A stretch of 64,000 nucleotides of DNA from an uncultured virus (IMG/VR IMGVR_UViG_3300034072_002082). Lineage: Duplodnaviria > Heunggongvirae > Uroviricota > Caudoviricetes. A program made the translations under genes and the position numbers. This document shows, in pieces, positions 3,224-60,128 of this stretch. Under the pieces are notes generated by a model. That model was given only the letters and a program-made list of their open reading frames with translations, was not told the DNA's origin and did no database searches. Location: the IMG/VR virus record IMGVR_UViG_3300034072_002082. The stretch is one strand, 5' to 3'. How positions within the stretch are numbered: position 1 is the stretch's first letter; every line of letters begins with the position of its first letter.

Positions 3224-3778
3224 TCAGGCGGCCTCGCGCCGGGCTGCGGTGGCCCCGCCGTTGACCTTGGAGGCACGGACCCAGACGATACGGGTCTCGG
3301 TGCGTCCCTTGCCGCAGCGCTGCGTGCGGAAGTAACCCTTGCGGTCGTGGCCCTCGACCTTGCGGCCGGTGGCTTCAGCCTGGCGCTCGGCGTCGCTGCG
3401 CTCGACGACATCAGTCGCAGTGACGATCTCGCCGCCCACGGCGCCGGTCTTGCGATCGACGATCCGCTCACGGTGCGCGATGAGCGTGATGGCCGTGTTC
3501 ACATCGAGGAGATCGCGAGCGAGGGTGTAGGTCTCGCCGTGGATCATGACGGTGCGGACCTGCACCTTGTTGTCGATGATGACCTGGCCGCGGCTGTAGG
3601 CATAGGGGCGGCCGAGCTTGTCCACGCGGTGGTCGACGTCTGCTGGCACGACGACGATCCGCATGTCCGGGCCGATGCGGAAATTGCGGCGTGGCTTGCG
3701 GCTACGGTCCGGGCGAGCACCCTGGTTGGCGCGGGCAGTCGATGCAGGCTTAAGCTTGGCGCGATTGGTCAAAGCCAT
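3224..3778 (-). CDS. OB-fold/SSB-like protein with basic C-terminal extension
   Basis: GRPYAYSRG...VRTVMIHG motif shared with the small OB-like paralogs; C-terminal GHDRKGYFR..RCGKGR..IVWVR; ends EAA. Confidence 0.6.
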   Translation of the reverse strand: MALTNRAKLKPASTARANQGARPDRSRKPRRNFRIGPDMRIVVVPADVDHRVDKLGRPYAYSRGQVIIDNKVQVRTVMIHGETYTLARDLLDVNTAITLIAHRERIVDRKTGAVGGEIVTATDVVERSDAERQAEATGRKVEGHDRKGYFRTQRCGKGRTETRIVWVRASKVNGGATAARREAA

Positions 3779-3863
3779 CTGATTTCGTCCTATGAATCTG
3801 GTATTGCGAGAAGGGACGAAGAACCGGCAGCACCCGGTTACCCGGGTGCTGAATACTTGCTCC

Positions 3864-4250
3864 TCAAAGGGTGATGGGGAGGAAGCGCCACTGGAACCCC
3901 TCCTTGAGCTCGCCGCCGGCCCAGATGGAGTCGATGACGTAGTGGCCGGAGGCATTGGGCTCGCCCCAGCTCAGGACCTTGACGCGCTCGATGTCGGCTT
4001 CGATCTCGTGACGCATATCGCGGGATAAGATGCCGAGGTCGCAGGACAGGTTGTCCGCTTCCATCTTGCGGACGTAGTTGAGCGCTCCCAGCATGTTGTT
4101 GGTGAAGATCTCGTCTTCGCCCTGGCCAGGTTCAATGACATCGAGGTCGATGGGCTCGACGGCCAACGTATCGGCATCACCAAAATTGGTGATTGTGCGG
4201 ACAACCACGAGCACGCCGGCGAGGGCAGGGTTGAGCAGGGCGTCGGACAT
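3864..4250 (-). CDS. hypothetical protein
   Basis: ORF with AGGAAAT RBS, acidic composition. Confidence 0.65.
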   Translation of the reverse strand: MSDALLNPALAGVLVVVRTITNFGDADTLAVEPIDLDVIEPGQGEDEIFTNNMLGALNYVRKMEADNLSCDLGILSRDMRHEIEADIERVKVLSWGEPNASGHYVIDSIWAGGELKEGFQWRFLPITL

Positions 4251-4414
4251 CGCATTTCCTTCCATCATCATCTTCAATGGAAGCTGGCTCGAAACGCGCC
4301 ACTGCGGACGCCCTGTCTATTTGTAGGGCACTTTAGCCTCGGCGCTGGGCCGAGCGCCGCAAAACACCCCGCGTCGGCGGGCCGGCGCGGGGTGATGTGT
4401 TTTGAAACCGAAGC

Positions 4415-4810
4415 TCAATTGCTGAGGACAGCGGCCCTTTGGGCAGGGGTTGCCACGGTGACTTCCGTGGCGACCGTCAGGTCCATGAGATGGCGGCTGG
4501 TGCCATGCGAGCGGATGCGCTTGCGCCGGGCAGTGACGACGACAGCGTCATGGCTGGCAAGCAGAGCGCAGAGCTGCTCGTAGAGGTCGCCAAGCACCAT
4601 GATACCACCGGTGAAGTGGCCGAGGCGGTCACCGTAGACTTGGCGACCGCGCCCAAAGGCATAGGGCTGCGTGCGGCTGAGCAGGAGATGGTCGAAGTCG
4701 CGTGCGGCGATAACGAACTGGCGCGATGGGCCAATGTGCTCGTTCTCGTTTACGGCTGGCGAAACCGCAGGGGCGGTGCGGCGGAACGTGTTGAGGCTGA
4801 GGAACGCCAT
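4415..4810 (-). CDS. hypothetical protein, possible divergent OB-fold
   Basis: TQPYAFGRG...IMVLG...VVVTARRKR resembles 3224..3778; AGGAAAT RBS. Confidence 0.55.
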   Translation of the reverse strand: MAFLSLNTFRRTAPAVSPAVNENEHIGPSRQFVIAARDFDHLLLSRTQPYAFGRGRQVYGDRLGHFTGGIMVLGDLYEQLCALLASHDAVVVTARRKRIRSHGTSRHLMDLTVATEVTVATPAQRAAVLSN

Positions 4811-4853
4811 ATTTCCTATCTCCCAAATGGATCGATGGGAGAGGAAGGCGATC

Positions 4854-9060: not shown

Positions 9061-9342
9061 TTATGCAGCTGCGGCCTCTGCCGGCGCGGGTTCGCGCGCG
9101 GGGCCGATGATGCGTGCCGTGTTCTTGCCGTCCCACACCGCGGTCACGGTGATCTTCGAGCCCTCGACGATCATGTCTTCGACGGTCTGAAGCACCGGCG
9201 AGAAGGCCATCACGGTGATCTCCTTGTCGCCCTTCTTGAAGTGGGCGGTCGCCTTCTGCGACTTGGCGAAAGGCTGACCTTCGTTCTTGCCCTTGGACAC
9301 GATGCCGTTGTGGATGGCTGCGAGGGTCACGGTGAGCTGCAT
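9061..9342 (-). CDS. small OB-fold/SSB-like protein (paralog A)
   Basis: GQPF...ITVMAF...EGSKITV pattern; AAGGA RBS; ends AEAAAA. Confidence 0.75.
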   Translation of the reverse strand: MQLTVTLAAIHNGIVSKGKNEGQPFAKSQKATAHFKKGDKEITVMAFSPVLQTVEDMIVEGSKITVTAVWDGKNTARIIGPAREPAPAEAAAA

Positions 9343-11266: not shown

Positions 11267-11542
11267 TTAGGCGGCGAGGGCTAGTGCTGGAGCTTCTTCG
11301 CCTGTCAGGCCGAGGATCTTGCATTCGAACAAGTTTCGAACATGCAATTGGGCATCTAACGTCGCGCCAGTGAAAAGCTTGTCGCCGATTGTTTCAAGCA
11401 CATCGCCAAACGCGAAGGCAATCATCCTCCTGTCGCCGCCCTCAGTATGCAGGACGCTCCCTTTGGCCATGATGTAAGGCGTTCCCGCCGAATTTCCGGT
11501 GGTGATGGTTCCAGTCACGACTTGGCCAAGGGTGATCTTCAT
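11267..11542 (-). CDS. small OB-fold/SSB-like protein (paralog F)
   Basis: MKITLG..TG..TTG..AG.PY..AKGS shared with 11680..11955; ends ALALAA. Confidence 0.75.
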   Translation of the reverse strand: MKITLGQVVTGTITTGNSAGTPYIMAKGSVLHTEGGDRRMIAFAFGDVLETIGDKLFTGATLDAQLHVRNLFECKILGLTGEEAPALALAA

Positions 11543-11679: not shown

Positions 11680-11955
11680 TTAGGCAGCGATGGCTTCTGC
11701 CGGAGCTTCGACGTCCGCCGGGCCGGCGATGACGATCGAGCCGTCGTCGAAGAACCACTTGACGTCCACCGTCGCGCCGGTGGCAATCATGTCGGCAACC
11801 TTCTCGAGGCCAGCGCCGAATGCCATCACGGTGCGCGTCTTGTCGCCAGCCTTCGGGAAGTGGGCAATGCTGCCCTTCGCCTTCATGTAAGGCTGACCTG
11901 CATTCTTGCCGGTGGTGACGGTGCCAGTTTCGACGGTGCCGAGGGTGATCTTCAT
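11680..11955 (-). CDS. small OB-fold/SSB-like protein (paralog B)
   Basis: GQPYMKAKG...RTVMAFG...TGATVDV; ends AEAIAA. Confidence 0.75.
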   Translation of the reverse strand: MKITLGTVETGTVTTGKNAGQPYMKAKGSIAHFPKAGDKTRTVMAFGAGLEKVADMIATGATVDVKWFFDDGSIVIAGPADVEAPAEAIAA

Positions 11956-12956: not shown

Positions 12957-13265
12957 TCAGGCAGCCTGCAGAGCAAGCCTTGTCCTGTGGATGCGGGTGC
13001 GAAGCTTGTCGCTGGCAATGGCGACCTGCAGGAACTGGCGGGTGTTTCGCAGCGTCCCACGACGTCCTTCAGCTTCCATGAAGACCGCATCGCGAACCGC
13101 GATGTAATCGTTCCAGGTCGCGTGCTGTTCAGCGATGGCCAGCTGTGTGGCAGGGGCATCAACGCCATAGAGTTCGATCATCGACGCAGCTTGCGTGCGA
13201 GCGCGGCGCATACGCAGTGCGAGGTTAGCCAGGGCGACACGGGTCGTGCCGGGAAGGGATCGCAT
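12957..13265 (-). CDS. hypothetical protein
   Basis: 102-aa helical ORF ending QAA; followed by a terminator at about 12899-12927. Confidence 0.6.
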   Translation of the reverse strand: MRSLPGTTRVALANLALRMRRARTQAASMIELYGVDAPATQLAIAEQHATWNDYIAVRDAVFMEAEGRRGTLRNTRQFLQVAIASDKLRTRIHRTRLALQAA

Positions 13266-13354: not shown

Positions 13355-13552
13355 TTAGGCGGCGAGACGAACCGAGTAGGCTGCGACGATCGCGTCCTCG
13401 GCTTCCTTCTGGCGCATCTTCTCGACGAACTTGGCGTTCGAGGCGGTGATCGTGACGCGGAGGCCATTCTTGAGAACGATGGTGTTGGCCTCGCGCTTGG
13501 CGATGGCGGCGCGGATGGCGAAGCGGCGGCGGATGTTGGAAGTGTAAGGCAT
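13355..13552 (-). CDS. small basic hypothetical protein (RRFAIRAAIA motif)
   Basis: GAGGAAAATCAG-ATG; ends RLAA. Confidence 0.65.
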   Translation of the reverse strand: MPYTSNIRRRFAIRAAIAKREANTIVLKNGLRVTITASNAKFVEKMRQKEAEDAIVAAYSVRLAA

Positions 13553-13657
13553 CTGATTTTCCTCGCTCTGAAGATGTTCGATCCACCGGAGGAGGGTCAT
13601 ACGGGTGTGGGCAGCGCCCACCGGCTTGGCTGGTCCAAGACAGGCGCCATCTGCGCT

Positions 13658-13702: not shown

Positions 13703-14269
13703 TTATGCGGCTAGTCTTTCGCAGAGGCGGTTGCCTGCCGCATTGAAGAGGACGACATCGGGGGTTCCGAGCTCAATGGTGATGCGCGTTTTCCCATTGA
13801 GGCGGAGCCACGAGAGTTTGGGAATTGTCGAGGTGGCCGACATGTCCATATCGACGAGCCAGTCGAGTGCGTTACCCATGAGTGCGCCCCACGAGTTAAT
13901 CTCGTTGTGTGGCTCGTAGTAGGGCTCGGCATTAGCATTCTGGCTGTTTGTGACGATGCGATAACCATCGATTTCGGTGGTTAGCTGCAACCAGCCCCAA
14001 TCATTGTCGTATTTGGCCAAAGGAAGAGCTGCAAATGGTGTGCAGAGCAGGTCGCTGATAGCCATTTCCGGATTCTGTCGGACGAGTTCGATAAAGAAGG
14101 GGAAGCACGTGTTATGCTCGAACAGGAGATCGATGAATTCCGGCAGGCTTTCGATATCTCCCGCACACCGAGCAAGGATCATGGCACGAGCCTCATCGGC
14201 ATACTGCTTGTATTCAGCCATCTCAGCATCAAATGCGGCTTGGCGTTGGGGAGTGAGTGCCTGTTCCAT
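13703..14269 (-). CDS. hypothetical protein (lower-GC cassette)
   Basis: GAGGAAAACCAG-ATG; visibly more AT-rich codons; ends RLAA. Confidence 0.7.
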   Translation of the reverse strand: MEQALTPQRQAAFDAEMAEYKQYADEARAMILARCAGDIESLPEFIDLLFEHNTCFPFFIELVRQNPEMAISDLLCTPFAALPLAKYDNDWGWLQLTTEIDGYRIVTNSQNANAEPYYEPHNEINSWGALMGNALDWLVDMDMSATSTIPKLSWLRLNGKTRITIELGTPDVVLFNAAGNRLCERLAA

Positions 14270-17835: not shown

Positions 17836-18396
17836 TCAAGCAGCAGGTGATGCCGTGAGTATCTGGATCAGCTCTGCGGCCGACTGCATGTATTCAGATC
17901 GCCTGCCCACCATGTGGGCCTGCCAGCCCTCGCCGCCTTCGCCGTCCCAGATGTCGGCGCGATAGCCCTTGGCGATCCACAGGGCGCGGGCAAGATCGGC
18001 AACGCTTGGCAGGGCAACCAGGCCCGAGGCCTTGAGCGCTGCGACTGCCACGTGCTCGGCTGTCAGCCTGGACAGAGCGGCTTCGTGCTTGTCGCGATCT
18101 GGCGTCTGGTGCACCCACCCGCCCCAGGTGTCGCTGCGAGGATCGCGGAAGTCGCGCACCACGTAGCGGCCACCTTCAGGTTCGGGGCCGTAAAACGCCA
18201 CGTTGTATCCGTAATCATAGCCACCAAATGGGCCTTCGCGCCCGGGACATCCCGCTTTTGCGATGGCATCGGCGGTACGGGTGATCACGTCTTCGGCGAA
18301 GGGATAAGGACCGATGGGCACGAGTTCGGGTGCCGGGCGCTTCTTGGCGACAGGCTCCAGACAAGGCGGATCGTACTCGCCATCCCAGCTGCTCAT
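17836..18396 (-). CDS. hypothetical protein
   Basis: ATGA overlap with the upstream gene; ends PAA. Confidence 0.65.
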   Translation of the reverse strand: MSSWDGEYDPPCLEPVAKKRPAPELVPIGPYPFAEDVITRTADAIAKAGCPGREGPFGGYDYGYNVAFYGPEPEGGRYVVRDFRDPRSDTWGGWVHQTPDRDKHEAALSRLTAEHVAVAALKASGLVALPSVADLARALWIAKGYRADIWDGEGGEGWQAHMVGRRSEYMQSAAELIQILTASPAA

Positions 18397-24254: not shown

Positions 24255-25127
24255 TCAGGCGGCTGAGAGGTTGCTGGTGACAGCATCCGGGAGGACATGA
24301 CCGTCCTCACGCATTTCCTGCTTCTCGTGCCCCCGCACGTGGCGGAAGCCTTCAAAAACCAGTTCGTCAGCGTAGTGACCTGGCAGCCCCTCGATCAGCT
24401 GGATCGAGCAGTTGGCAGGGTTTGGCTCGCGTTCGACCTGCTCCCATTCCCAGTGCAGCCAACGATGGCGGAACTGGCGAATGGTGACCCCGTGGCTGAC
24501 CAGGACGAAGTCGAGGATGGGGCCATCAGGGCCAGCGTAGGGATCCTTGCCAGTGTGCTGGACGGGATAAGGATTTGCTGGCGCTGTGCGGGGCGTGCTG
24601 TCGCGCAGAATCGTGCCGAAGAGCGCCTTGACCCTGTCGCCGACCTGGATGCGGCTCTCGCCCATCGGCATGGGCGCAAAGAGCTCGCCCGAGAAGTCGA
24701 CGTGCTTCTGGTAATGGGCGTGCTCGCGGGGAAACATCTCCGCCAGCTGATGGTCTTCAAGGCCGTCATAGAGGCCGAAGCTGATCTCGCGCAGTTCCAT
24801 GGCCTCGCGGCTGTCGTAGGCAAAGCCAGCCTCATCGAGAGCCCGCCGCAGTCCGGCGGCCGTCTGGCGAGTGCGCAGGTAAGGTGAGACGAGCAGCCGC
24901 ATGCGGCGCATCTGGTTCGGGTTGCGCCCGGTCATGCGGATGTAATTCACCAGTTCCTGGCCAGCGAGATAGGCCTGGGCATGCCCGTTGCCGATCGGGT
25001 TGCTACAGGTCGGGTCGCCGGCCAGCTCGACCGCGTGGTCGGGCTTTCGCGCATTGACCGTCTTATCCATATTCGCCTCTGAAAGGCCATGACGAATGAG
25101 GAATATACGAACGGCTGGGCGTTTCAT
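24255..25127 (-). CDS. histidine phosphatase (phosphoglycerate mutase-like) family protein
   Basis: LIRHG.S..N, VSPYLRTRQT, LREISFG, GES and LVSHG motifs. Confidence 0.92.
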   Translation of the reverse strand: MKRPAVRIFLIRHGLSEANMDKTVNARKPDHAVELAGDPTCSNPIGNGHAQAYLAGQELVNYIRMTGRNPNQMRRMRLLVSPYLRTRQTAAGLRRALDEAGFAYDSREAMELREISFGLYDGLEDHQLAEMFPREHAHYQKHVDFSGELFAPMPMGESRIQVGDRVKALFGTILRDSTPRTAPANPYPVQHTGKDPYAGPDGPILDFVLVSHGVTIRQFRHRWLHWEWEQVEREPNPANCSIQLIEGLPGHYADELVFEGFRHVRGHEKQEMREDGHVLPDAVTSNLSAA

Positions 25128-25588: not shown

Positions 25589-26284
25589 TCAGGCGGCTGC
25601 TGCTGCCACCGCCTGGTTCTCGTTGGCGGCGTCGCGCTCGAAGCGGTCGAAGTAGCCGACCGCTTCGCTGTAACGGATGTGCCCGCGCGGACGGCAGCCG
25701 GTCTCATCCTTGTAGCAATCGCTGTATTCCCCAAACAGCATCGGATCGATGTAGTTGATGTGGGCATAGGGATTGCTGGCGAGGCTCTCGTCGCGAAGGA
25801 GGTCGTAGGCAGCGCGGGCTGCAATGACCGCCGCATGCTTGCCGACTGCGTGGAAGCGGACCTCGGCCTCCTCGTTGCTCGCGGGGTAGCCATTGACGGC
25901 GTCCCATTCGCGCACGGCTTCGCTGCAGGCGCTGTAGTAGGCGCGGGAAGCGTCCTCGAGCTTCGGCCCCAATTCAAGCTGGACGGGGGTGGGCTCGCAG
26001 CTAACCAGCTCGTGGTCGGAGGTGGTGACCGTGAAGGCCAGGGCGCCGTCCACTTCCACCTGGACGAACTGGCCGCCGCTGAAGCTGAACACAAGCGAGA
26101 GATCGAACGTCTCAAGCGTCTTGACGCCCGTGAAGCCTCCATTGGCGGCGTAGGGATTATACGAGCCGTAGCGGACGGCCTGGACGACCTGGCTTGCCAG
26201 GATGCGTGACTTCTTGGGGTTGATGCCGAGCTTGCGGATCATCGGGTAGACGCGGTTGGCGAAGGTTTTGGTGTCAGTGCGCAT
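25589..26284 (-). CDS. hypothetical protein with YSD.YKD..G.RPR motif and ssrA-like tail
   Basis: YSDCYKDETGCRPRG resembles a phage-type motif; ends AANENQAVAAAAA. Confidence 0.7.
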   Translation of the reverse strand: MRTDTKTFANRVYPMIRKLGINPKKSRILASQVVQAVRYGSYNPYAANGGFTGVKTLETFDLSLVFSFSGGQFVQVEVDGALAFTVTTSDHELVSCEPTPVQLELGPKLEDASRAYYSACSEAVREWDAVNGYPASNEEAEVRFHAVGKHAAVIAARAAYDLLRDESLASNPYAHINYIDPMLFGEYSDCYKDETGCRPRGHIRYSEAVGYFDRFERDAANENQAVAAAAA

Positions 26285-28226: not shown

Positions 28227-28523
28227 TCAGGCGGCTGCGGCTTCAGCCGCTTCGGTCTCTGCGGCCTTGGGCGCGATGACCAGGAGGACGTTGTCCTTGA
28301 ACACGGCCTTGACCGTGATCTTGCGGCCCTTCTTGAGGCGGCTGGCGATGGCGTCGCGGGCGTCGCCGAATGCCTGGACTGTCAGCTTGCGCGGGTTCTT
28401 CGCGAAGTGGCAGTCAGCGTTTTTCAGGGTGGCGTACTTCCGTCCGGCGTCGGGGCCCGAAGCGATGGTGCCGGTCTTGACGCTCGAAGGGGTGAGGGTG
28501 ACGGTGAAAGGGAACTTGCTCAT
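28227..28523 (-). CDS. small OB-fold/SSB-like protein (paralog C)
   Basis: GRKY...LTVQAFG.ARD.I...LKKGRKITV; ends AEAAAA; terminator at about 28178-28210. Confidence 0.75.
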   Translation of the reverse strand: MSKFPFTVTLTPSSVKTGTIASGPDAGRKYATLKNADCHFAKNPRKLTVQAFGDARDAIASRLKKGRKITVKAVFKDNVLLVIAPKAAETEAAEAAAA

Positions 28524-28625
28524 ATCTGTGTCCTTGTGCTTGATTTTCGTTTGATCGCTCAGATCACATCCCATTCCTGATCGAAAAGCGGGGGTATGGG
28601 CCGAAGGGGCCTGATCGCCGGCCAG
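28524..28625 (-). promoter_or_regulatory. conserved structured leader C
   Basis: mRNA-sense GGCCCCTTCGGCCC-ATACCCCCGC...TCGATCAGGAA...TGATC/GATCA hairpin...GAAAATCAA...AAGGA. Confidence 0.75.
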
Positions 28626-31081: not shown

Positions 31082-31097
31082 TGATTAATCTTCGAGA

Positions 31098-31367
31098 TCA
31101 AGCTGCCTTGGCGGTCTTCGCAGGGCCAAGAATGCGCAGCAGGTTCTTGCCGTCGAACTGGGCGGTGACGGTGACCGTCTTGCCCTTGCGCAGCAACGAG
31201 CGGACGCTGTCGCGGGCCTTGCCGAAGGCCATGACGGTCACGTCTGCCTCGTTGCCGTTCTTGTAGAACGCGCGGGACTCGCGGATCGTCGAGTAGCGCT
31301 GGCCGTTGACGGCGGTCTTGGTTTCAACCGAACCGAGACGCACCTTGAGCTGGATGATGGCTGCCAT
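31098..31367 (-). CDS. small OB-fold/SSB-like protein (paralog D)
   Basis: GQRY...VTVMAFGKARD.V..LLRKGKTVTV..FDGKN..RILGP; ends KAA. Confidence 0.78.
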   Translation of the reverse strand: MAAIIQLKVRLGSVETKTAVNGQRYSTIRESRAFYKNGNEADVTVMAFGKARDSVRSLLRKGKTVTVTAQFDGKNLLRILGPAKTAKAA

Positions 31368-31519: not shown

Positions 31520-32098
31520 TCAGGCGGCCCAGGCCGAATCCACCGCCGGCGAGAACTCGGGACGAGGCGCCCGGCGGATGCGCATGGTCAGCATGACCGA
31601 CTGCTTGGCTGCATCGATGAGGTCGATGGTCTTCTGCGAGAAGACAACCAGCGGTCCATAGATCGTGGTGAGGCCGCCTTCGTGCGCCTCCACGTTGATC
31701 GTGAGCATACGTCCAGTACGCGAGCGACCCTCGTCAACGTAGGTGACGACGCCGGTGATCAGGCTTGGGATGTCGAGGCCGTGCTTGAAGCTGCGGCGCA
31801 GCGGCTTCTCAGGAGCGGGCTTGGCGCCGCCGAATGGGCCTGCATGGGCCTTGGCAGCAGGCTCCGGCCAGACAAAGGCGGATGCCTCCTGAAAGGCTGC
31901 GAGCGGATTGCGGAGCAGAGCCTCGCTGATGTCGGCAAGCGTCAGGCCATACTTGGCCAGAAGACGCGTGAAGCCACCGAGGGCAGCGATCTGGTCCGAT
32001 CCTTCGGCCAGAGCGAACATGTTCCAGGCTGCAGCGACGCGGCGGTCGTTGAAGGCATCGCGCATGGCGGCTGGGACGTTCTGAGGACGGTCGGTCAT
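31520..32098 (-). CDS. hypothetical protein with possible C-terminal OB-like domain
   Basis: ITGVV...GR...GPLVVF beta-rich C-terminus; ends WAA. Confidence 0.6.
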   Translation of the reverse strand: MTDRPQNVPAAMRDAFNDRRVAAAWNMFALAEGSDQIAALGGFTRLLAKYGLTLADISEALLRNPLAAFQEASAFVWPEPAAKAHAGPFGGAKPAPEKPLRRSFKHGLDIPSLITGVVTYVDEGRSRTGRMLTINVEAHEGGLTTIYGPLVVFSQKTIDLIDAAKQSVMLTMRIRRAPRPEFSPAVDSAWAA

Positions 32099-32206: not shown

Positions 32207-35086
32207 TCAGGCCGCGACTGCGAGTTCCTCGCTGACGCTCTCGAAGCAACCGAGCATCTGCTCGATGTCTTCGATGGTGATGCCATCGCACAGTTCCACG
32301 GTGCGGTGGGGCATGATGATCTCCGACAGCCCGCTCTTGCGGCGGTGCTTGGCCATCATGAAATTCTCGATCGGCGAGTTCATCACGAAGCGGTAGACCT
32401 CAATCACCTTGGTCTGATTGCGGCGGGTCGCGCGGCCGATGCCCTGGCGCTCAACCATGGGGTTCCACCATGGCTCAGCGAAAAAGATGGCATCAGCTTC
32501 GTTGAAGTCGAGCGAGCGGCCACCGGACTTGGTGGTCATCAGGATGATCTGGGCATCGCCTGCCTTGAACTTGTTCTCGGCAACCCGCTTGTCGGCCTTG
32601 TTCATGCGTCCGTCGTAGTGGACGGCGGTCATGCCATGCTGACGCAGGACCGATCCCAGCAGGTCGAGGTGGCTCGTCCAGCTCGAGAAGACGATGATGC
32701 GCTTGCCCTGGTCGACGAGGTCAGCAGCCTTGTCGACAATGGCCTTGGTCTTGGGCGAGATCTTGTACGGCGAGACCGGACCCGAGACGCCACCTGGCAT
32801 CAGCAAGGGGTTGCACGACAGCTGACGCTCGCGCGTCATGCTGAGCATGATCGACATGCCAAGCTGTGCCGCGCCGCGGCCGCTCTTGCGGACGTCATCG
32901 AGCTTCTTCTCAAAGCGCTTGCGCTTGAGAGCAGACAGGACCGAGTAGGTCTTGGTCTGAGCCTTGGTCATTTCGACGTTGATCTCGTGCACCACAGGCG
33001 TCGGGATCTTGTCGTCGTAACGGGCCAGAATGAACGGCGAGGTGAGGGCATTCAGCCGGTTTGCTGCAACAACGTCCGCATCATCCATGATCGGCGAGGT
33101 GAAGACCTTGTGGAAGGCCGGCAACGTGCCGAACACGCCCGGGTTCGCGATCGACATGAGCGTGTAGAGGTCGTCGTAGGAGTTCTCGATTGGCGTTGCC
33201 GTCATCGGAATCTTCTGCACGGCCTCGATGGCTGCGATCGACTTGGCTAGATGGCTCTTGGCGTTCTTGGCGTCCTGAGCCTCGTCCAGAGCCACTATGG
33301 TCCAGCGACGGTCACTCAGCGGGCAGCTGGAGCGATGGATCAGGTCATGGGTGGTGATCACGATGTCACCGACCTCTGGGGTCGGCCGTGACTTGCCCCA
33401 CCACATGTGAACCGGCAGCCCGTCGAAGTTCTTGGCGATGTCGGCATGAATCTTCTCAAGGGCTGCGCTGGGTACGACCAGCAGAGCACCCTCATCGAGA
33501 AGGCCAGCTTCACGCAGCGAGGCGATGTGAAGCATGATCTCGGTGGTTTTGCCGAACCCGGTACCATCGGCAAGGATGCCGCCGTAGCCGTGGTTGAACA
33601 GGGTGCGCATCCAGCGGGCTGCGGCCAGCTGGCGGTCGTCCTGCTCACCGACGAAGCAGGCAGGATAGAGGATCTGCTCCTGCTCGCCGACACGCATGGC
33701 GTTGAGCAGGCGCAGCAGGCCGTCAGGGGCAGTGAGGCCGATGTTCATCGACAGGTTGGCAAGATCGGCAAGCGATCCCAGGTCCACAGGGGCCGACCCA
33801 TAGCCGCGACGCGACATGAGGATGCGGCGCAGGGCAACACCCAGCGAAATGAAGTCGTCAGCCTTTAGGAGAAGGATTTCTCCGGTCTCGCTGCGCATCG
33901 GCACTTCGCCATTGCGAACGTAGCGCTGGAGGAAGGCTGCAGCCTCGATGTCATCGGCCATTTCGGGGATATCGATGATCATCTCTGCCAGCGGCTCGAT
34001 GATGCTGCTGGTGGTATCGCCCTCGAAGATGTCGAGCTGATAGTCATGCTCGTGCGCGCCGATGGCGATGTTGAGCTCCAGCTGCGAAATGCGGCGGAGG
34101 GAAATGGCCCAGTTCGCAGCCTCGCTGATGGTCCAGCCTTCGCTGGCCAGGCGTTCGGATTGCTGCTCCTGGAAGAGGGCTGCATCGACGTCTGCGTCAG
34201 CGCCTGCGAAGGTCATGACGCCCTTGGCGTCCGTCTTGTTGAGGCCCTGCTCAGCAGCTTCCTTGAGGATGCGCTTTTCGGCCGAGACGTTGCGCTTGAT
34301 GACGGTGACGGTGTTGGTTTCAGGGTCAAACGCCCGGGCCTCGCCGCCCTCGCCGAGGTCGCCCACGAGCGCACCTTCGTAGTCTGCAGTAATGCGCGCA
34401 ACGGGCTTGTCCCCGTCGCGTTCGAAGGTGATGCGCTTCTTTGGGCGCCCCATCTGCCGCTTGACGGCGATCGGGGTGGGCTTTGCAGCGATGGACTGGT
34501 CGGTGACATGGTCGGTCATCGCTTCAGCAAGCGACGCGCTCTGCTCAGGCGAGAGCGGGCCGGAGCGCACAAGGCCCACGGCCACATGGGCGGCCATGTC
34601 CACGAGGATGCGCGAGAGCTTGCCTTCAGCAATACGAACAGGGATGCCGGCATTGTAGATTTCGCTGGGGGAGAGATCGGGCACGAGCACGAAGATCTGC
34701 GTGCCATCGTCCTGCATCACCCACTGCGGAGCGGCAGTCAGGGTCTCGCTTTCGCTGATCGAAGAGTCGTCTTCGAAAGTGAGGCTGTCACTGCGGATCA
34801 AGCCGGCAAGAATGCTCGCGGCGTCCTCGCCTTCGAGCCTGAAGATCGCGTCTTCTGCGCTTTCAGCCTTGGGCAGCGCAAAAATGCCAGCCACGGTCAG
34901 GCGTTCGCTTTCGCTGATACGCAGCGGCATGCTCCAGACGGGCTTGCCGGTGGCAATGTAGCTGAGCTTCAGGCCCAATTGGCCCCTGTCATCCACTTCA
35001 ACCAGATCGAAGCGCACGCGCGGGCCAAACTGCTGGACTGGTGCCTTGCTGAACAACCAGTCAAATGCCCCATGGACTGCACTCAT
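32207..35086 (-). CDS. SNF2/SWI2 family helicase-like ATPase
   Basis: GGILADGTGFGKT, LDEAQ, MTATPIEN, IVFS.W, YDG and EPWWNP..E.Q..GRA.R..Q motifs. Confidence 0.95.
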   Translation of the reverse strand: MSAVHGAFDWLFSKAPVQQFGPRVRFDLVEVDDRGQLGLKLSYIATGKPVWSMPLRISESERLTVAGIFALPKAESAEDAIFRLEGEDAASILAGLIRSDSLTFEDDSSISESETLTAAPQWVMQDDGTQIFVLVPDLSPSEIYNAGIPVRIAEGKLSRILVDMAAHVAVGLVRSGPLSPEQSASLAEAMTDHVTDQSIAAKPTPIAVKRQMGRPKKRITFERDGDKPVARITADYEGALVGDLGEGGEARAFDPETNTVTVIKRNVSAEKRILKEAAEQGLNKTDAKGVMTFAGADADVDAALFQEQQSERLASEGWTISEAANWAISLRRISQLELNIAIGAHEHDYQLDIFEGDTTSSIIEPLAEMIIDIPEMADDIEAAAFLQRYVRNGEVPMRSETGEILLLKADDFISLGVALRRILMSRRGYGSAPVDLGSLADLANLSMNIGLTAPDGLLRLLNAMRVGEQEQILYPACFVGEQDDRQLAAARWMRTLFNHGYGGILADGTGFGKTTEIMLHIASLREAGLLDEGALLVVPSAALEKIHADIAKNFDGLPVHMWWGKSRPTPEVGDIVITTHDLIHRSSCPLSDRRWTIVALDEAQDAKNAKSHLAKSIAAIEAVQKIPMTATPIENSYDDLYTLMSIANPGVFGTLPAFHKVFTSPIMDDADVVAANRLNALTSPFILARYDDKIPTPVVHEINVEMTKAQTKTYSVLSALKRKRFEKKLDDVRKSGRGAAQLGMSIMLSMTRERQLSCNPLLMPGGVSGPVSPYKISPKTKAIVDKAADLVDQGKRIIVFSSWTSHLDLLGSVLRQHGMTAVHYDGRMNKADKRVAENKFKAGDAQIILMTTKSGGRSLDFNEADAIFFAEPWWNPMVERQGIGRATRRNQTKVIEVYRFVMNSPIENFMMAKHRRKSGLSEIIMPHRTVELCDGITIEDIEQMLGCFESVSEELAVAA

Positions 35087-35297: not shown

Positions 35298-35582
35298 TTA
35301 GGCCGCTGCGGCTTCAGCCGGGGCTTCTGCCGGGGCCGGGTCCTTGCGCAGGCCGAGGACGCGGTACGAACCGCCCTGCGGCATGCAGTTCAAGGTCACC
35401 TTGCGGCCCGGCTTGAAGAACTTCTTCACAGCCTCGACGTTTTCCTTGAAAACCATCACCGTGCGCTTTCCGACGACGGTGCCGTCCTTCTTCAGAAGGT
35501 TGCCCTTGCCGACCAGGTAGTCACCTGCCTTCGACGAGTTGCGAGCATGAACTTCGGTGAGCTTGAAAGTGATGTTCGACAT
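35298..35582 (-). CDS. small OB-fold/SSB-like protein (paralog E)
   Basis: AGDY..GKG...KRTVMVF...KPGRKVTL; ends AEAAAA; terminator at about 35233-35265. Confidence 0.72.
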   Translation of the reverse strand: MSNITFKLTEVHARNSSKAGDYLVGKGNLLKKDGTVVGKRTVMVFKENVEAVKKFFKPGRKVTLNCMPQGGSYRVLGLRKDPAPAEAPAEAAAA

Positions 35583-35840: not shown

Positions 35841-36638
35841 TTAGGCCGCGTATTGCCCGAATGGACGCCCCGGTTCAGCGGGCTCGGCGCGAAGGTCGAA
35901 GAACTCGCCTGACGGGGCATTGCGGAAGCACTGCGTGTGGGACATCAGTTCCGCAATTGTCAGCCTGCCGGCTTCGGGGTTGTCGTGCCGGACACCTACG
36001 AACGAGCCGGAATCAACGAAAAATACGTTGCCGAGTTGGGTAGGATTTCCAACGATGGTGTGGCCGCAGAAGATGCGGCCAATGCCGCGCACACCCTGGT
36101 TGTCGCGATGTTCGATGCGGCTGCGTCCCCAAAGGGCGGACTTGATGGTCCTCTTGTCGCCAGCTTCGATCGCTTCGATGAAGGTGGGCCAGTCCATGCC
36201 CGGCGGGACTTCACCGTGGACGAGACCGACGAGGCCGCGTGCTGTCTCGATCTCGCGAACGATCGGGAGTTCGCGGAAGGCGAGGATGAATTCCAGCCGC
36301 TCGTCGCACGATAGGCCCATGAACCAGGCCATGCCATTGCGGCTGGTCCAGAAGCGCAGGGCGTCTTCGTCGGGGGTGTCGGTATTCTCGTAAGGCTCCA
36401 TCAGCATGTCTTCATGGTTGCCACGGATCGGGAAGATCGCAGGGTTGCGCATGAAGGCCAGCGCCCGGGGAGATTCAGGACCGCGGTCGACGAGGTCGCC
36501 CACACTGAACAGGCGGTCCCGTCCGAAATCGAAGCCGACGGCGTTCATTGCGGCAGCCACCACCGAGTACGTGCCATGGACGTCGCCGATAACGAAGTCG
36601 CGGCCGGTGAGGTTGGCGGTGTGACGGATGACGCGCAT
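35841..36638 (-). CDS. metallophosphoesterase, PphA/lambda-phosphatase-like
   Basis: GDVHG, GDLVDRGPES, RGNHE, VHG, ALWGR, CGHT and VDSG motifs. Confidence 0.92.
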   Translation of the reverse strand: MRVIRHTANLTGRDFVIGDVHGTYSVVAAAMNAVGFDFGRDRLFSVGDLVDRGPESPRALAFMRNPAIFPIRGNHEDMLMEPYENTDTPDEDALRFWTSRNGMAWFMGLSCDERLEFILAFRELPIVREIETARGLVGLVHGEVPPGMDWPTFIEAIEAGDKRTIKSALWGRSRIEHRDNQGVRGIGRIFCGHTIVGNPTQLGNVFFVDSGSFVGVRHDNPEAGRLTIAELMSHTQCFRNAPSGEFFDLRAEPAEPGRPFGQYAA

Positions 36639-41813: not shown

Positions 41814-42461
41814 TCAGGCGGCCTTGCGCTGCACTGTGGCCGGGCGAGCGAGCTCAGCGCATTCGAGGTCCTCGATGCGCGTGAGGCCTGCAGCACGGAC
41901 AGTCATCCGATCGCCGGCAACGCGAGCGCGACGCTGCGCTTTGCCGGTCTTGGGATCGCGATCCACCCAGATGTTGGTGGGAATGCCGTCGACCCAGGTG
42001 CGGGTGCCATCCCAGCGTTCCCCGTGGTAGCGAACGCCGGTGCGGCCCGGGGTAACGGTGAAGCTGTCGCGCAGGCGGACCTGACCGCTGCCCGAGCCAA
42101 GGTACAGGTCACCACGGTTCAGTGGCCGGCGGCCGTTGGTTTCGCAGCCGAGTGCGCTTACAGCGCACCCCGAGCCGGACATCTCAAATCCGTCGATGGC
42201 GACAAGCAGATGCTTGAGGGGATCGACGATCTGGATCTCCAACCCGACGAGCTTGTCGAAATCGCGGAAGCGGTCTTCAGCGTCCATCGGGTGGATCGGG
42301 CGCACGATCATGACCTCGACGGTCTCGCCTACGGCTGGAACAGGAGTGCCGTGCGCGAAGAAGCACAACTGGCCGTCGATGAAGGCGACTGGCTTGCCGC
42401 CCTTGCGGCGGTTGTGCTGGACGGTTGCCATCAGGGGAACGTGCTGGATGCCGTAGGCCAT
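41814..42461 (-). CDS. hypothetical protein
   Basis: GAGGAAATCACG-ATG; ends RKAA. Confidence 0.7.
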   Translation of the reverse strand: MAYGIQHVPLMATVQHNRRKGGKPVAFIDGQLCFFAHGTPVPAVGETVEVMIVRPIHPMDAEDRFRDFDKLVGLEIQIVDPLKHLLVAIDGFEMSGSGCAVSALGCETNGRRPLNRGDLYLGSGSGQVRLRDSFTVTPGRTGVRYHGERWDGTRTWVDGIPTNIWVDRDPKTGKAQRRARVAGDRMTVRAAGLTRIEDLECAELARPATVQRKAA

Positions 42462-45639: not shown

Positions 45640-45810
45640 TCTATGGAATAACGGGTTGATGCTTCAACCCCGCAAACCCAATTGGTTACGCCTGGCAGTT
45701 GCCTGCTTCAGCGCGATTTCGAGACTACGCTCATCCTCAGTCGTGAGACTGTGCAGCCCAGCCTTGCGGATGGCTGCCGGATCACGTTAGCGTCTCAAGG
45801 GCCCTGAACG
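45640..45810 (-). ncRNA. putative TnpB omega/reRNA (boundaries approximate)
   Basis: Structured region overlapping the tnpB 3' end: GAGAC-GCT...AGCGTAGTCTC stem, GCAG-GCAA-CTGC and GGGTTGA-AGCA-TCAACCC hairpins. Confidence 0.55.
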
Positions 45811-51389: not shown

Positions 51390-51698
51390 TCAGGCAGCTT
51401 CGGCGAGATCCTCTTCATCGTCCTCGTCGTGGATTACGACATCGTAAAGGAAGATGTTATGGATCTCGTCTTGGCCGTTGTAGAGCTCGTTCTGTCCAGC
51501 CGAGAGCATGACGCAAGGGTAGCGCAGCGGTTCTGGGTCACGCAGGACCCGGTGCTGGATGCGCTTGCTGCGGTCATGCGGATAACCCCCGTGATGACCC
51601 CAGAGGGTATCGAGGAAGGCGATGAAGTCGTCCTCGGTCTTGAAGAGGCGGGTGTCGTACTCGTCGGCGGTAGCGGTGAAGCGGATATTCATGGGCAT
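51390..51698 (-). CDS. small acidic hypothetical protein
   Basis: Ends DEDDEEDLAEAA; terminator at about 51351-51383. Confidence 0.65.
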   Translation of the reverse strand: MPMNIRFTATADEYDTRLFKTEDDFIAFLDTLWGHHGGYPHDRSKRIQHRVLRDPEPLRYPCVMLSAGQNELYNGQDEIHNIFLYDVVIHDEDDEEDLAEAA

Positions 51699-54979: not shown

Positions 54980-55390
54980 TCAGGCAGCCTTGCGCCACTC
55001 GTTGCCACGTTCATCACGCAGGGTCTCGCCCTCGTAGATGGCAACGACCTTGAGCATGCCGCGCTCACGCACAGCCATGCCCTTGACCAGGCGGTCGCGC
55101 TTCATGGCATCGGCGATCTTGCCGAAAGCCACGACGACCGGCTGGCCGCCTTCGGCGAACGAGACGTAAGGCTGGCCGCCGGCGGTGCGACCTTCTTTCA
55201 TCGATGCCGACTGGAAGTCGATGTGGACAGACTGCGGAGCTGCTGCGGTGGTCGCCGCGCGCGCCGGGGTCTGCGCAACAGCCGATGACTTGCCTCCAGC
55301 GGCAACTGGCTTGGTGACGGCTTCACCTGCGGCCTTACGACGGGCGATCGCACGGGCGATAGCGAAGCGCTGAGCGTTGGAACGGGCCAT
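54980..55390 (-). CDS. hypothetical protein: RFAIARAIA N-terminus plus OB-like C-terminus
   Basis: GQPYV...VVAFGKIAD motif shared with the OB-like paralogs; ends RKAA. Confidence 0.65.
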   Translation of the reverse strand: MARSNAQRFAIARAIARRKAAGEAVTKPVAAGGKSSAVAQTPARAATTAAAPQSVHIDFQSASMKEGRTAGGQPYVSFAEGGQPVVVAFGKIADAMKRDRLVKGMAVRERGMLKVVAIYEGETLRDERGNEWRKAA

Positions 55391-55498: not shown

Positions 55499-55945
55499 TC
55501 AGGCAGCCATCCCCATGCGTTCCACGCTGGCGATGGCGCCAAGATCGGCTCGCTCGGCTTGGCCATTGGGCCGTGCCGCGCGCACCGGTGCTGTAGCCCG
55601 GATCTGCTTTAGCAGCTCCGTCCGGCTCAGGCCGCCTGTCTGGGCAAGCACCTGTTCCACAGCTGTTGCGGTGGACGGGTCGAGCAAGACAGAGCGGTTG
55701 AGACGGCCAAACCCGATAGCCTGCAGGAAGCGGGGCGCGCCTTGGGCGTGTGTGCGCACGAGCTGCTCAACATGCATCAGACGCGGTCCGCGTATGTTGA
55801 TGTCATATTCGATGTCGGTTGCCTGGCGGCCGGTTGCTTGCGCGACGTGCCAGTCGATCAGGTAGATCAGCATGGCAATGCGCTCGAGGTCTCGCTCGCG
55901 CGCGCAGAGCAAATGGATGAGCGCGCGAGCCTTGTCGAACTTCAT
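55499..55945 (-). CDS. Panacea/SocA (DUF4065)-like protein
   Basis: KFDK....IHLL...LIYLIDW.....TGR..T..EY....RGP pattern. Confidence 0.6.
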   Translation of the reverse strand: MKFDKARALIHLLCARERDLERIAMLIYLIDWHVAQATGRQATDIEYDINIRGPRLMHVEQLVRTHAQGAPRFLQAIGFGRLNRSVLLDPSTATAVEQVLAQTGGLSRTELLKQIRATAPVRAARPNGQAERADLGAIASVERMGMAA

Positions 55946-57418: not shown

Positions 57419-57556
57419 GTTTCTTACCAGATAGTGAGTTGCCACTGCATCAGCAAATCATGGGGCCGCACGGCTTTGCCGCAGGCCATAAAGAAAGGGG
57501 CAGGAGCGCCTGAAGCACTCCTGCCCCTCATGAGCCCGCCTCAAGCGGTTGGGCGT

Positions 57557-58285
57557 TCAGCGGAAGGCCTGGCTCATGATCTCTTCGGGCGCGGCACCCG
57601 GATAAACTGCATCGCGCGTGATGAAGAACGGCGTGCCCGAGACACCAATCTCGTTGGCAACCTTGGTCTGGTTCTCGAACGTTGCGTTGACCTTGGGTCC
57701 GCGCATGTCCTTGACTGCCTGATCGTAGTTCAGACCAACCTTGGCGGCGATAGCCTTGAGGGCTTCGTCGGTCGGCTTGGTCTCGTGGTGATTGCCAAAG
57801 GCTTCGTAGAGCGCGTGGTGGGTCGCGGGGAACTTGCCCTGCAGATCCGATGCCAGCGCGAAGCGGGCGAGCTTCTCGGATTCCTCGCCGAAGATCAGGC
57901 GCATCGCGATGATCACGCGCACTTCGGGGCGCTTCTTCACGATGTTGTCGATCGCGTTGTGCGCGGTCTTGCAGATCGGGCAGGCGTAATCGATGAATTC
58001 GACCACCGGCACGGTGCCATTCGGGTTGCCAATGACCGGGCCCCAGCCCTTGGCGAACATCTGCGCACGCAGCGGGCCAGCCTTCTCATTGAGAGCCGTG
58101 GTCTGGTCGGCCTGTTGCTTGGCCTGCGCAGCCTGCATCACCTCCTGGATGATCTCGGGATGAGCCGTCAGCGAAGCGCGCAGCTTGGCGGTGAAGGCCG
58201 GGTCTTCGGCCTGCTGTGCAGCGGCGGGCATGGCGGCAAGCGACGTCGCAGCAGCGATCGCCACGAGGACGAGTTTCTTGATCAA
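57557..58285 (-). CDS. DsbA family thiol-disulfide oxidoreductase
   Basis: Signal peptide, HPEII.E, GNPNG...VVEF.DYACPIC and GVSGTPFF motifs. Confidence 0.9.
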   Translation of the reverse strand: MIKKLVLVAIAAATSLAAMPAAAQQAEDPAFTAKLRASLTAHPEIIQEVMQAAQAKQQADQTTALNEKAGPLRAQMFAKGWGPVIGNPNGTVPVVEFIDYACPICKTAHNAIDNIVKKRPEVRVIIAMRLIFGEESEKLARFALASDLQGKFPATHHALYEAFGNHHETKPTDEALKAIAAKVGLNYDQAVKDMRGPKVNATFENQTKVANEIGVSGTPFFITRDAVYPGAAPEEIMSQAFR

Positions 58286-58546
58286 GATGGGTACCCCCTG
58301 GTTGGCAAGCACCTCCGATCGGAGATGTGCTTGCAGTTTTCCTACACCGGATGTCCGGTGCCTATCAAGCGAAAGCGTTATCCCACCTGCAGATTGTCCA
58401 ATTGAGCGCACGTCATGCATTGGACGTAATGCAGCCTTGGCTTGGGCAATCCCTTCCAATGTCCGATACGTGCAGGTACAATTGTGCGGTATCTGCGCGG
58501 CAGTCGAATGCCCTCTACCGGTCGCAGACAAGATGGGACGCCTTAA

Positions 58547-59272
58547 ATGACCGACACCATGCCCAAGCTGACTATCCACGAGTTGTCCCAGACAACGAAG
58601 GCGGCAAACTTTGTCGCATCGTGGGGCTCTCATGGCGATCTGCGCAATTTATCCGGAGAAACGAGCGAGCCAGCCTCACCGCTGGAGCGGAGCGCTATGA
58701 TTGCCTTCGAGGCGATTACCCAGAGGGGCGAGATGGGAGACCCTCGGGGATCACGTTTTCACGACGACCGCAACCAGATGATCGATCTGATGAGCAACGG
58801 CATGCGCCTTGCTGTGGTTGAGGAGCGGCAGAATTTCGAACCTCGCAGCGACATCGAGCGCGCACGTGCGATCCTGATCTCGACCGCCTTGGTTGCCGAA
58901 GGGCGCGCTGCCCATGACGGTAGCAGGGACATGCCGTTCGACTTCACGGTGCTGGAGAATGTTCGCAAGCTTTCTGGAATGGATCGCCTCGAAATGAACC
59001 GGCCTGAAGCTGGTGCTCTTGGCGTCGGAATGGCCGACCTGATCGATCGGGCTGATCTTAAGGCAGCGGTCGCTCAGACCATTGCCAAGGGCACCCAGGC
59101 GTTCGGCGATCCTGAACTGGAAAGGGCAATCATCCGCTCGGATGTCGCAGTGCCCCTGGTTCGCGTGCGCGAGAACGGGGTGCCGGTCTCGGCGGCCAAG
59201 GGCGGCGTCAATGCAGGCCCTGAGATGAGCGAACTCGCCAAGGCGATGGCCGGAATGGACAAGCAGCGCTGA
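58547..59272 (+). CDS. hypothetical protein
   Basis: 241-aa ORF; convergent terminator at about 59330-59369. Confidence 0.7.
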   Translation: MTDTMPKLTIHELSQTTKAANFVASWGSHGDLRNLSGETSEPASPLERSAMIAFEAITQRGEMGDPRGSRFHDDRNQMIDLMSNGMRLAVVEERQNFEPRSDIERARAILISTALVAEGRAAHDGSRDMPFDFTVLENVRKLSGMDRLEMNRPEAGALGVGMADLIDRADLKAAVAQTIAKGTQAFGDPELERAIIRSDVAVPLVRVRENGVPVSAAKGGVNAGPEMSELAKAMAGMDKQR

Positions 59273-59393
59273 GCAAAAGGGCCTGTGAGGCATAATAGCA
59301 ACGAGCGCTAGGCTGGCTCCGTTGGCATGAAAAAGGGCAGGGGACCATCATTGGTCTCCTGCCCTTTTTGTTATTCGCGAGGCCCAGATGCGA

Positions 59394-60128
59394 TCAGGCG
59401 GCCTTGCGCGGTGCCTCAAGGTGACGTGTCGAGTTCAGGACGATGGTGCCGGCGGCGAGCTTTGCATCGAGGTCTCGTGCCCATCCTTCGAGGCCTGCCA
59501 TCACCTTGGTGTGCAGCTTTGGAAGATCGCTCACGTCATGGTAGCCGAAGCTGTAGCAACCAAGGTCGCCAGGGTGCTTGACCTGCGAGAAGACCTTGAA
59601 GGTGCGATCATCGCGGAACGGCGCATGCCAGATATTCCCGATGTAGCCGTAGCTCAGCCCCAGGTTGGGAAAGAGGCCACTCACCCTGACCATCTCAGCC
59701 CGGATCTCGGCGTCAGCCTGGTCGAGCGGCATAGCCTTCTCGGCCTCCAGCTGAGCGACCCATGCCTTGATGAGGCTGTCGAGGTGCTCGATGGACTTGG
59801 CAACGCCATTCTCGCCCATCCAGTGGCACCTGAGCGCGTATGGGCTGGCTACGAAGGGCCACACGACGTTGTGGATCTCGCTCATCTCCTCGGTCCATGG
59901 CTTGTCGGGATCGAGACGCGGCATGCAGGCATCGACGTAGGACGCGTAGGTGCTCATTGCCGGCAGCATGTCGTGGCCGGCCTCGGCCGCGCGGTTGACG
60001 GTGCGCGAGAGCGCCTGGATCTGAGGGACCAGCTCCTCGGTCAGCGCGATGAACTTGCCGTGCCGGATTGCGCGAAGCACCATGCCGGGCATGCGGCGAA
60101 TTTCGGCGTCGGGGTAAAGGTGGGCCAT
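59394..60128 (-). CDS. hypothetical protein
   Basis: GAGGATGAAAAC-ATG; ends RKAA. Confidence 0.7.
   Translation of the reverse strand: MAHLYPDAEIRRMPGMVLRAIRHGKFIALTEELVPQIQALSRTVNRAAEAGHDMLPAMSTYASYVDACMPRLDPDKPWTEEMSEIHNVVWPFVASPYALRCHWMGENGVAKSIEHLDSLIKAWVAQLEAEKAMPLDQADAEIRAEMVRVSGLFPNLGLSYGYIGNIWHAPFRDDRTFKVFSQVKHPGDLGCYSFGYHDVSDLPKLHTKVMAGLEGWARDLDAKLAAGTIVLNSTRHLEAPRKAA

Follow-up and report, generated by a model that had tools for sequence, protein, structure and literature searches.

In Caulobacter crescentus, one report describes a C-terminal Ala-Ala (AA) as a hallmark of many ClpXP substrates, and conversion of AA to DD stabilises CdnL (PMC5324124). For Escherichia coli, a screen reports that strong C-terminal degrons are ClpXP-dependent and ssrA-like, that the terminal AA is critical and on its own insufficient, and that the ClpXP-dependent consensus is [L/F/Y/W]-[L/A/R]-L-A-A, in which the third position disfavours Pro, His, Gly and short polar residues (PMC10862746). 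Here we describe the same ending at replicon scale in a family of large mobile elements, starting from 64,000 nucleotides of an uncultured virus record (IMG/VR IMGVR_UViG_3300034072_002082), part of an 80,206-bp metagenome contig and referred to throughout as the window. A first-pass annotation, made from the letters alone, had listed 21 genes that end in AA and had read these ends as genetically encoded degrons of the ssrA/ClpXP type. Such an encoded tail is present on about a fifth of all genes in the element family and, among the soluble proteins of its dominant strand, on about one in four.

Genes were predicted with a purpose-written codon-usage caller, trained on long open reading frames (ORFs), which takes the best-scoring start per ORF and makes a greedy, non-overlapping choice (minimum 35 amino acids; score at least 8). 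It called 87 genes in the window, 80 of them on the minus strand; 21 (24%) end in AA and 32 in Ala. Translation of the last 15 codons at the 21 stops listed by the first-pass annotation gave ...AA* in every case (21/21), always on the minus strand. Its list and its estimate of about a quarter of the genes thus hold, and the three tag-like tails that it quoted were found as written. It had also remarked that signal-peptide proteins are not among the AA genes, and none of the 14 window proteins with a transmembrane (TM) or signal-like segment ends in AA; the proxy is a crude heuristic, namely a hydrophobic 19-residue segment with a Kyte-Doolittle mean of at least 1.6. Its expectation of only one or two such endings stands by composition, since Ala makes up 12.7% of residues and AA 1.7% of internal dipeptides, from which one would expect about 1.5 genes to end in AA (binomial P ~2e-18), but not empirically, because the control rates given below (4.0-8.9%) predict 4-8.

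The tails of the window proteins are rich in Ala at positions -1 (37%), -2 (29%) and, more weakly, -4 (28%), and at no others. Outside called gene ends, AA precedes 22 of 2879 stop codons (0.76%). The penultimate Ala codons of the 21 tails are mixed (GCC 10, GCT 7, GCG 3, GCA 1), and no extended nucleotide motif was found flanking the stops of the AA genes in the window; together these observations place the signal in the protein and not in the DNA. The stop codon that follows AA is TGA in 14 cases and TAA in seven. On the counts at other stops and the mixed penultimate codons we rejected the candidate explanation of a DNA motif that marks gene ends regardless of frame. Five of the 21 AA genes (9061, 11267, 11680, 28227 and 31098, named by their lower coordinate) are demonstrable paralogues of about 90 amino acids, and 35298 joins the 9061-type family only through a shared homologue in a metagenome locus (L039); taking the five and 35298 as one family, the window contains about 16 independent AA endings.

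Relatives of the window were found by three routes. One gave homologues of its SNF2-family helicase, among them one on a 372-kb contig; a second gave four metagenome loci (L038-L041), whose contigs measure 207 kb, 659 kb, 13.7 kb and 16.6 kb; and the third led to two plasmids from cultured Sphingomonadales, soil and marine bacteria: p1 of Sphingosinicella sp. BN140058 (NZ_CP035502.1; 347 kb), which matches 15 of the 87 window proteins at E <=1e-5, and the plasmid of Erythrobacter aureus YH-07 (NZ_CP031358.1; 408 kb), which matches 23. Both of these named relatives encode a VirB4/TrbE ATPase. In L039 a gene resembling a type IV coupling protein lies beside the SNF2 gene, and L038 contains a PcfJ-like gene. 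The records type p1 as MOBQ and the E. aureus plasmid as non-mobilizable. Family-library scans of the window proteins revealed no type IV secretion system (T4SS) ATPase, coupling protein or relaxase in the 64 kb. We read the family as probable T4SS-bearing megaplasmids of Sphingomonadales, an assignment which, for the window itself, comes through its homologues. Co-orientation of genes is pronounced throughout (80/87 in the window, 338/405 on p1 and 418/481 on the E. aureus plasmid). The cumulative guanine-cytosine (GC) skew climbs steadily over the window, and co-orientation this extreme is unusual for a plasmid of such size. Both named megaplasmids also carry ArfA, an alternative factor for ribosome rescue that serves as a tag-free backup to transfer-messenger RNA (tmRNA), at NZ_CP035502.1 125756-125908 and NZ_CP031358.1 147898-147963; one is annotated in RefSeq and the other scores above the Pfam ArfA cut-off. 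For the p1 ArfA, neither the window nor any of the four metagenome loci gave a significant match.

With the same caller, AA endings were found in 18 of 85 genes (21%) of the four metagenome loci (8/28, 4/32, 4/11 and 2/14), in 71/405 (17.5%) on p1 and in 89/481 (18.5%) on the E. aureus plasmid, of which 400,000 of 407,975 bases were analysed and where AA greatly outnumbers every other final dipeptide (AR, in second place, occurs 15 times). The pooled family thus has 199 AA endings in 1058 genes, compared with 166 in 3126 (5.3%; range 4.0-8.9%) for seven control sets, mostly of high GC. These comprise 16 stretches of 20 kb from eight high-GC alphaproteobacterial chromosomes (12/301, 4.0%; four stretches from two genomes with GC <0.58 were left out, and all 20 give 13/373); 40 syntenic, and hence non-independent, Gaiella/Actinomycetes loci obtained from the SNF2 alignment search, those under 6 kb dropped (40/750, 5.3%); a Niveispirillum plasmid (15/168, 8.9%); the Brevundimonas jumbo phage Domovoi (23/406, 5.7%); the 1.3-Mb replicon of Novosphingobium humi, of the same order (11/194, 5.7%); a plasmid of Polymorphobacter, which belongs to the family of Sphingosinicella (11/135, 8.1%); and the 57 of 80 proteobacterial loci that are at least 15 kb long (54/1172, 4.6%). 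All exceed the 1.6-2% expected from composition. The window differs from the first four sets (90/1625) with a Fisher P of 4e-8 and from the highest control rate with a binomial P of 2e-5. Where compared, the caller agreed with deposited annotation: on Domovoi it gave 5/82 and the deposited coding sequences 5/83, and RefSeq's own p1 coding sequences between 125 and 165 kb include 14 AA endings in 63, five of which are one RQAKAA paralogue family. The AA bias belongs to the element family and not to high GC. As a separate observation, prophage-like loci around NinI-like phosphatases had AA at 5/26 in Pseudomonas costantinii (L184) and 7/31 in a Paraburkholderia metagenome-assembled genome (L188), the latter mostly as x-E-A-A.

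The ending is unevenly distributed among the 1058 pooled genes. It occurs on 19 of 232 TM/signal-like proteins (8.2%) and 180 of 826 soluble ones (21.8%; P 9e-7), and on 6 of 149 minor-strand products (4.0%) against 193 of 909 from the major strand (21.2%; P 3e-8). When only soluble proteins are considered, the strand contrast persists (6/104 vs 174/722; P 3e-6), and the two groups are equal in Ala (12.6% vs 12.2%) and in internal AA (1.74% vs 1.64%). Given this equal Ala content, the contrasts of strand and solubility make the excess a trait of co-oriented soluble products, not of replicon or host composition. One qualification is that among the pooled controls, too, AA is about two-fold lower on TM-like proteins (29/935 vs 137/2191), an effect that is absent in the alphaproteobacterial control sets.

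Comparison between relatives revealed that the ending is inherited. The window, p1, the E. aureus plasmid, L038 and L039 yielded 221 pairs of reciprocal best hits (L040 and L041 were left out as near-duplicates), of which 31 are AA/AA, 39 mixed and 151 without AA (odds ratio 13, P 3e-12). When the 70 pairs in which one or both members have AA are aligned from the C terminus, identity reaches 56-59% at -1 and -2 and falls to 10-19% at -3 to -12, below the 19-33% of the 151 pairs that lack AA. A fixed dipeptide on a drifting tail is the signature of a short linear motif. Each of the five SNF2 relatives examined, three from metagenome loci and two from databases, with 47-76% identity to the window helicase, has AA at its end (...ELAVAA or ...LRMAA), and the four proteins of the 25589 family, with identities down to 45%, terminate in AANENQAVAAAAA, AANENQAAAVAA, AAAHADLEVAAAA and ADLDNRHIANLAA, where the final AA is constant despite insertions and deletions. 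On this comparative evidence the AA ending is kept by selection.

The residues upstream of AA were compared between the 199 element tails and the 166 control tails, and the former follow roughly the pattern L-[A/R]-[L/K/A]-A-A. Leu at -5 is present in 22% (controls 7%), Ala or Arg at -4 in 87/199 (28/166; P 4e-8), and Leu at -3 in 39/199 (8/166; P 2e-5), whereas acidic residues at -3 or -4 occur in 32/199 (80/166) and P/H/G/S/T/N/D at -3 in 21/199 (39/166). The A/R and L contrasts persist without the Gaiella loci. Leu (20%), Lys (16%), Ala (15%), Gln (10%) and Ile (9%) are the commonest residues at -3; at -4, Arg or Lys is found in 28% of the pooled tails, and in the window alone Ala or Arg in 16 of 21. 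The match to ClpX preference is a statistical one and does not extend to every tail. The tmRNA tags that ARAGORN located in five alphaproteobacterial genomes (ANDNSMALAA, ANDNFAEARAAA, ANDNAPLAIAA, ANDNVAPFAVAA and ANDNHRMAIAA) end in ALAA, RAAA, AIAA, AVAA and AIAA, and the 25589 tail AANENQAVAAAAA resembles a whole tag, including its A-N-[D/E]-N start. An AlphaFold model of the 25589 family, built from the four-sequence alignment, has a mean predicted local distance difference test score (pLDDT) of 72, with residues 100-220 confident. Neither ClpP nor SspB is encoded on p1, so that any reader would be the host's.

Of the interpretations considered, that of the first-pass annotation is the best one judged by sequence: the tails lie far above baseline, are kept by selection, are rare on membrane or exported proteins and have ClpXP-like upstream residues. 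Nothing points to the Caulobacter host that its examples might suggest, for the window is metagenomic and the named relatives are Sphingomonadales megaplasmids. The two purposes that it put forward, a pulse of short-lived proteins and a flood of ClpXP decoys, are candidates at most. The tails are thus probably encoded ssrA-like degrons that host ClpXP reads, which would render a large set of cytosolic proteins short-lived. The host ClpX pore (and perhaps ClpA or FtsH) would take hold of the free AA carboxyl terminus, after which the protein would be unfolded and degraded. The short-lived set would consist of co-oriented accessory, nucleic-acid-repair and probable establishment or anti-defence proteins, the levels of which would depend on the ClpXP capacity of the host. 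That ClpXP reads the tails we infer, as we do the purpose, which may lie in a limit on dose or on duration after entry, in a lower burden or in a coupling of protein levels to ClpXP load. A wider proposal, offered tentatively since we hold it to be rather unlikely, is that this one ssrA-like ending makes about a quarter of the soluble megaplasmid proteome a post-translational regulon wired to host ClpXP capacity. About a hundred proteins would rise together when ClpXP is busy, be it from ribosome stalling, from tRNA damage by defence nucleases, from stress or from a burst of synthesis after conjugation, and would be cleared in a healthy cell, which would keep the burden of a 400-kb plasmid low; ArfA and the whole-tag mimic might then belong to the same dialogue with trans-translation.

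Several observations weigh against the degron reading. Among the 70 orthologue pairs with an AA member, 39 are mixed. The NinI-like phosphatase family ends in PFGxYA plus a variable last residue (YAA, YAR or YAS; the p1 copy has YAS), and AA is present in 6 of its 24 closest homologues, then in one among the following 36 and one among the final 60. For the 24255 histidine phosphatase, the nearest representative (73% identical) ends in GADA and AA occurs in 4 of 150 homologues, and the AA of 31520 is not kept in its L038 orthologue (IVFET). Some tails have poor upstream residues (SPAA, LSAA, REAA), and the E. coli screen gives 39% of AA-ending 5-mers as only weakly enriched (PMC10862746). A degron tail should be exposed and unstructured; that of the 25589 protein, although pLDDT drops to 56-61 over its last 20 residues, is drawn as a helix, in one model of modest confidence at this end. 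Minor-strand calls may include spurious ORFs, which would lower the AA rate of that strand, and a host-wide AA bias is excluded only indirectly. Finally, GCC encodes the terminal Ala in 17 of the 21 window tails, compared with 45% internally, which indicates some codon-level preference before the stop.

The last point would also suit an ending that has no signalling role and that arises from termination context or from a habit of the lineage, mutational or compositional, at the ends of its genes. Window genes without AA likewise favour C at the third position of their last codon (55%), high-GC control replicons already have 4-9% AA where composition predicts about 2%, and in some families AA is gained and lost between close homologues. 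Such a habit is nevertheless improbable: minor-strand and TM-like genes sit at baseline with equal Ala content, the penultimate codons are mixed and both TGA and TAA follow AA, the ending is inherited between orthologues while its flanks drift, and the upstream residues are non-random in the direction of ClpXP. It is highly improbable that the whole proteomes of the hosts are AA-rich and that the element merely shares their bias. Control replicons do vary in rate, one 42-kb stretch of the Niveispirillum plasmid reaching 6/36, but replicons of the same order have 11/194 and 11/135, the minor-strand genes of the element replicons themselves 6/149, and the bias spans at least two host families as well as metagenomes with 60-68% GC.

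Two further explanations accept that the tail is read and differ in what reads it or to what end. ClpXP might bind the tails as decoys, their role being to load the protease and so spare host substrates (ssrA-tagged or regulatory) or the key proteins of the element. The same ClpXP motif evidence would serve here, as would a single common ending on about 20% of a 350-480-gene replicon, the family that mimics the whole tag, and the presence of ArfA on both named relatives, which shows some link to trans-translation. Titration, however, requires high expression, and one abundant decoy would suffice, whereas the tails are found on about 200 unrelated proteins that include enzymes (the SNF2 helicase, phosphatases); ArfA fits the RNA-repair theme equally well without a ClpXP link, and we give the decoy role little credence. 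Alternatively, an [A/R/K]-x-A-A end might be recognised by something other than a protease, such as a chaperone, an adaptor or a T4SS coupling protein that exports the proteins to recipients. As a rule, T4SS substrates are recognised by way of an exposed and often positively charged C-terminal tail, and the VirB/D4-type signal has an Arg-rich, positively charged C-terminal consensus. The VirB4/TrbE genes of both named relatives, the coupling-protein-like and PcfJ-like genes of L039 and L038, the frequency of Arg or Lys at -4 and the restriction to soluble proteins would all be in keeping with this. We know of no T4SS signal that ends in Ala-Ala, and it would be without precedent for a fifth of a replicon's proteins to be secretion substrates. 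From -5 to -3, the preference for L, A/R and L closely matches the one measured for ClpXP, and no T4SS gene was seen in the 64-kb window, so that a reader of this kind seems to us quite doubtful.

The AA genes of the window all lie on the minus strand. A small family of about 90-115 amino acids with Ala/Glu/Pro-rich tails includes, by paralogy within the window, 9061..9342 (...PAPAEAAAA; homologues in L038/L040, p1 and the E. aureus plasmid), 11267..11542 (...EEAPALALAA), 11680..11955 (...EAPAEAIAA), 28227..28574 (...AETEAAEAAAA) and 31098..31367 (...PAKTAKAA), together with 35298..35582 (...APAEAPAEAAAA), whose L039 homologue ends in VADAA. In L038 and L040 the domain of the 9061 family forms the C-terminal part of a protein of 387-417 amino acids that ends in ...AEG, not AA. 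Pfam identifies a histidine-phosphatase-family gene at 24255..25127 (...SNLSAA), with AA not kept in homologues, and the SNF2-family helicase at 32207..35056 (...SEELAVAA), the relatives of which keep it; Pfam and PHROGs both identify the NinI-like metallophosphatase at 35841..36638 (...PFGQYAA), the last residue of which varies in homologues. The full ssrA-tag-like tail (...DAANENQAVAAAAA) belongs to 25589..26284, one of a family of four that all end in AA. Homologues or paralogues are available for 3224..3778 (...AARREAA; paralogue of the non-AA gene 4415-4810), 17836..18396 (...LTASPAA; homologue on the E. aureus plasmid), 31520..32098 (...VDSAWAA; the L038 orthologue mentioned above), 41814..42461 (...TVQRKAA; p1 homologue without AA) and 59394..60128 (...EAPRKAA; E. 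aureus orthologue ending in ...LVPQAA). The genes 12957..13265 (...RLALQAA), 13355..13621 (...YSVRLAA), 13703..14269 (...LCERLAA), 51390..51698 (...EEDLAEAA), 54980..55390 (...NEWRKAA) and 55499..55945 (...ERMGMAA) are given from translation and gene call.

Most window genes have no family assignment in Pfam, PHROGs or NCBIfam. Those that do encode a photolyase, an XPF/Hef-type nuclease, the SNF2 helicase, two NinI/Pnkp-like metallophosphatases, a CCA-adding enzyme, an RNase H, a staphylococcal-type nuclease, a DsbA/ScsC-like protein and TnpB, with a further weak Lar-like match. A theme of nucleic-acid and RNA repair is apparent in the Pnkp-like phosphatase (56306-57418), the CCA-adding enzyme (37276-38442), the NinI-like phosphatase (35841-36638) and the histidine phosphatase (24255-25127), and it recurs in the relatives (L039 8995-9489; p1 133924-139068) as HAD_SAK_2, a GSU2403-family nucleotidyltransferase, a cyclic-phosphate-processing domain and NADAR. 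This gene set suggests a defence against nucleases that target tRNA or other RNA. The TnpB/IS605-family gene (45795-47003) has OrfB_IS605 and Cas12f1-like TNB domains, and its closest genome matches, at most 50% identical, are from Bacteroidota, Cyanobacteria and Rhodothermales. Three paralogues of about 180 amino acids (60184-61288 and 62497-63024) lie near the DsbA/ScsC-like gene (57557-58312); two end in C-A-Y-S-L-x-A-x and the third in ...GCADSLKG. The minor-strand gene 38570-39076 (+) belongs to a family that forms two tandem arrays on the 659-kb contig of L039 (2556-7568 and 17111-20310), with about 14 copies of about 170 amino acids, all with hydrophobic/basic ends (...YVRI, ...FHRV). 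Our caller left gene-free gaps of about 1.1-1.2 kb at 30013-31098 and 61288-62497, which have no tRNA or Rfam match; over the whole window ARAGORN and Rfam likewise detected neither tRNA nor tmRNA nor any Rfam family, and a promoter/terminator scan of its 24-44 kb region did not rise above shuffles.

The best phage matches of the CCA-adding enzyme are from Brevundimonas and Caulobacter jumbo phages. The Dolichocephalovirinae identity that these matches might imply was rejected, only that enzyme, 1 of the 87 window proteins, having a match in the sampled 261 kb of phage Domovoi. No structural PHROG was found in the window, and p1 had neither Terminase_6N nor an HK97 capsid, a weak test confined to these two families. 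Megablast queries of 8 kb (phages) and 24 kb (plasmids) returned no near-identical match. With the single SNF2 protein as query no relative was found in genome or viral contigs; with the SNF2 alignment there was none in viral contigs, and genome contigs gave only distant Gaiella/Actinomycetes helicases. A phosphatase alignment search of genome contigs did not return the Sphingosinicella genome, and a lineage-specific protein of 429 amino acids was absent from the 401 alphaproteobacterial genomes searched.

One ending marks about a fifth of all genes in a family of 350-660-kb mobile elements. A literature search found AA degrons on single proteins and nothing that describes AA endings across a whole plasmid or phage, and a search on the E. 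aureus strain found nothing on its plasmid. We regard the use of ssrA-like ends at replicon scale on T4SS-bearing megaplasmids as new, the signal itself being known from single regulators. If the tails do act as degrons, protein lifetime would be a replicon-wide design feature of mobile DNA, and hundreds of accessory or establishment genes could be expressed briefly and cheaply, tied to the proteolytic state of the host. Two carriers are in culture, the non-pathogens E. aureus YH-07 and Sphingosinicella sp. BN140058, which makes the degron reading accessible to direct tests.

The leading or establishment regions of conjugative plasmids contain co-oriented early genes rich in anti-defence functions. 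The element resembles them in its one-strand trains of small genes mixed with a helicase, a nuclease, a phosphatase and a weak Lar-like match, and in its T4SS-bearing relatives. Leading regions are short, however, whereas co-orientation in the element extends over more than 80% of 350-480 genes. In ribosome-associated quality control, RqcH likewise appends C-terminal alanines that signal proteolysis; these are attached post-translationally to stalled chains, whereas the element alanines are templated and number exactly two in most tails. Closest are the tmRNA (ssrA) tag and the C-motif 1 ClpX degrons such as those of C. crescentus CdnL and CtrA, which share with the element tails a free C-terminal Ala-Ala on cytosolic proteins and non-acidic upstream residues that are often Leu, Ala or Arg; one element tail copies the whole tag, and the rationale of AA-to-DD exchange carries over directly. 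C-motif 1 degrons are known on single regulators, whereas the element tails, as putative degrons, are on about a fifth of a replicon's genes. The ssrA tag itself is added by tmRNA, whereas the tails described here are encoded by the genes, within ordinary ORFs.

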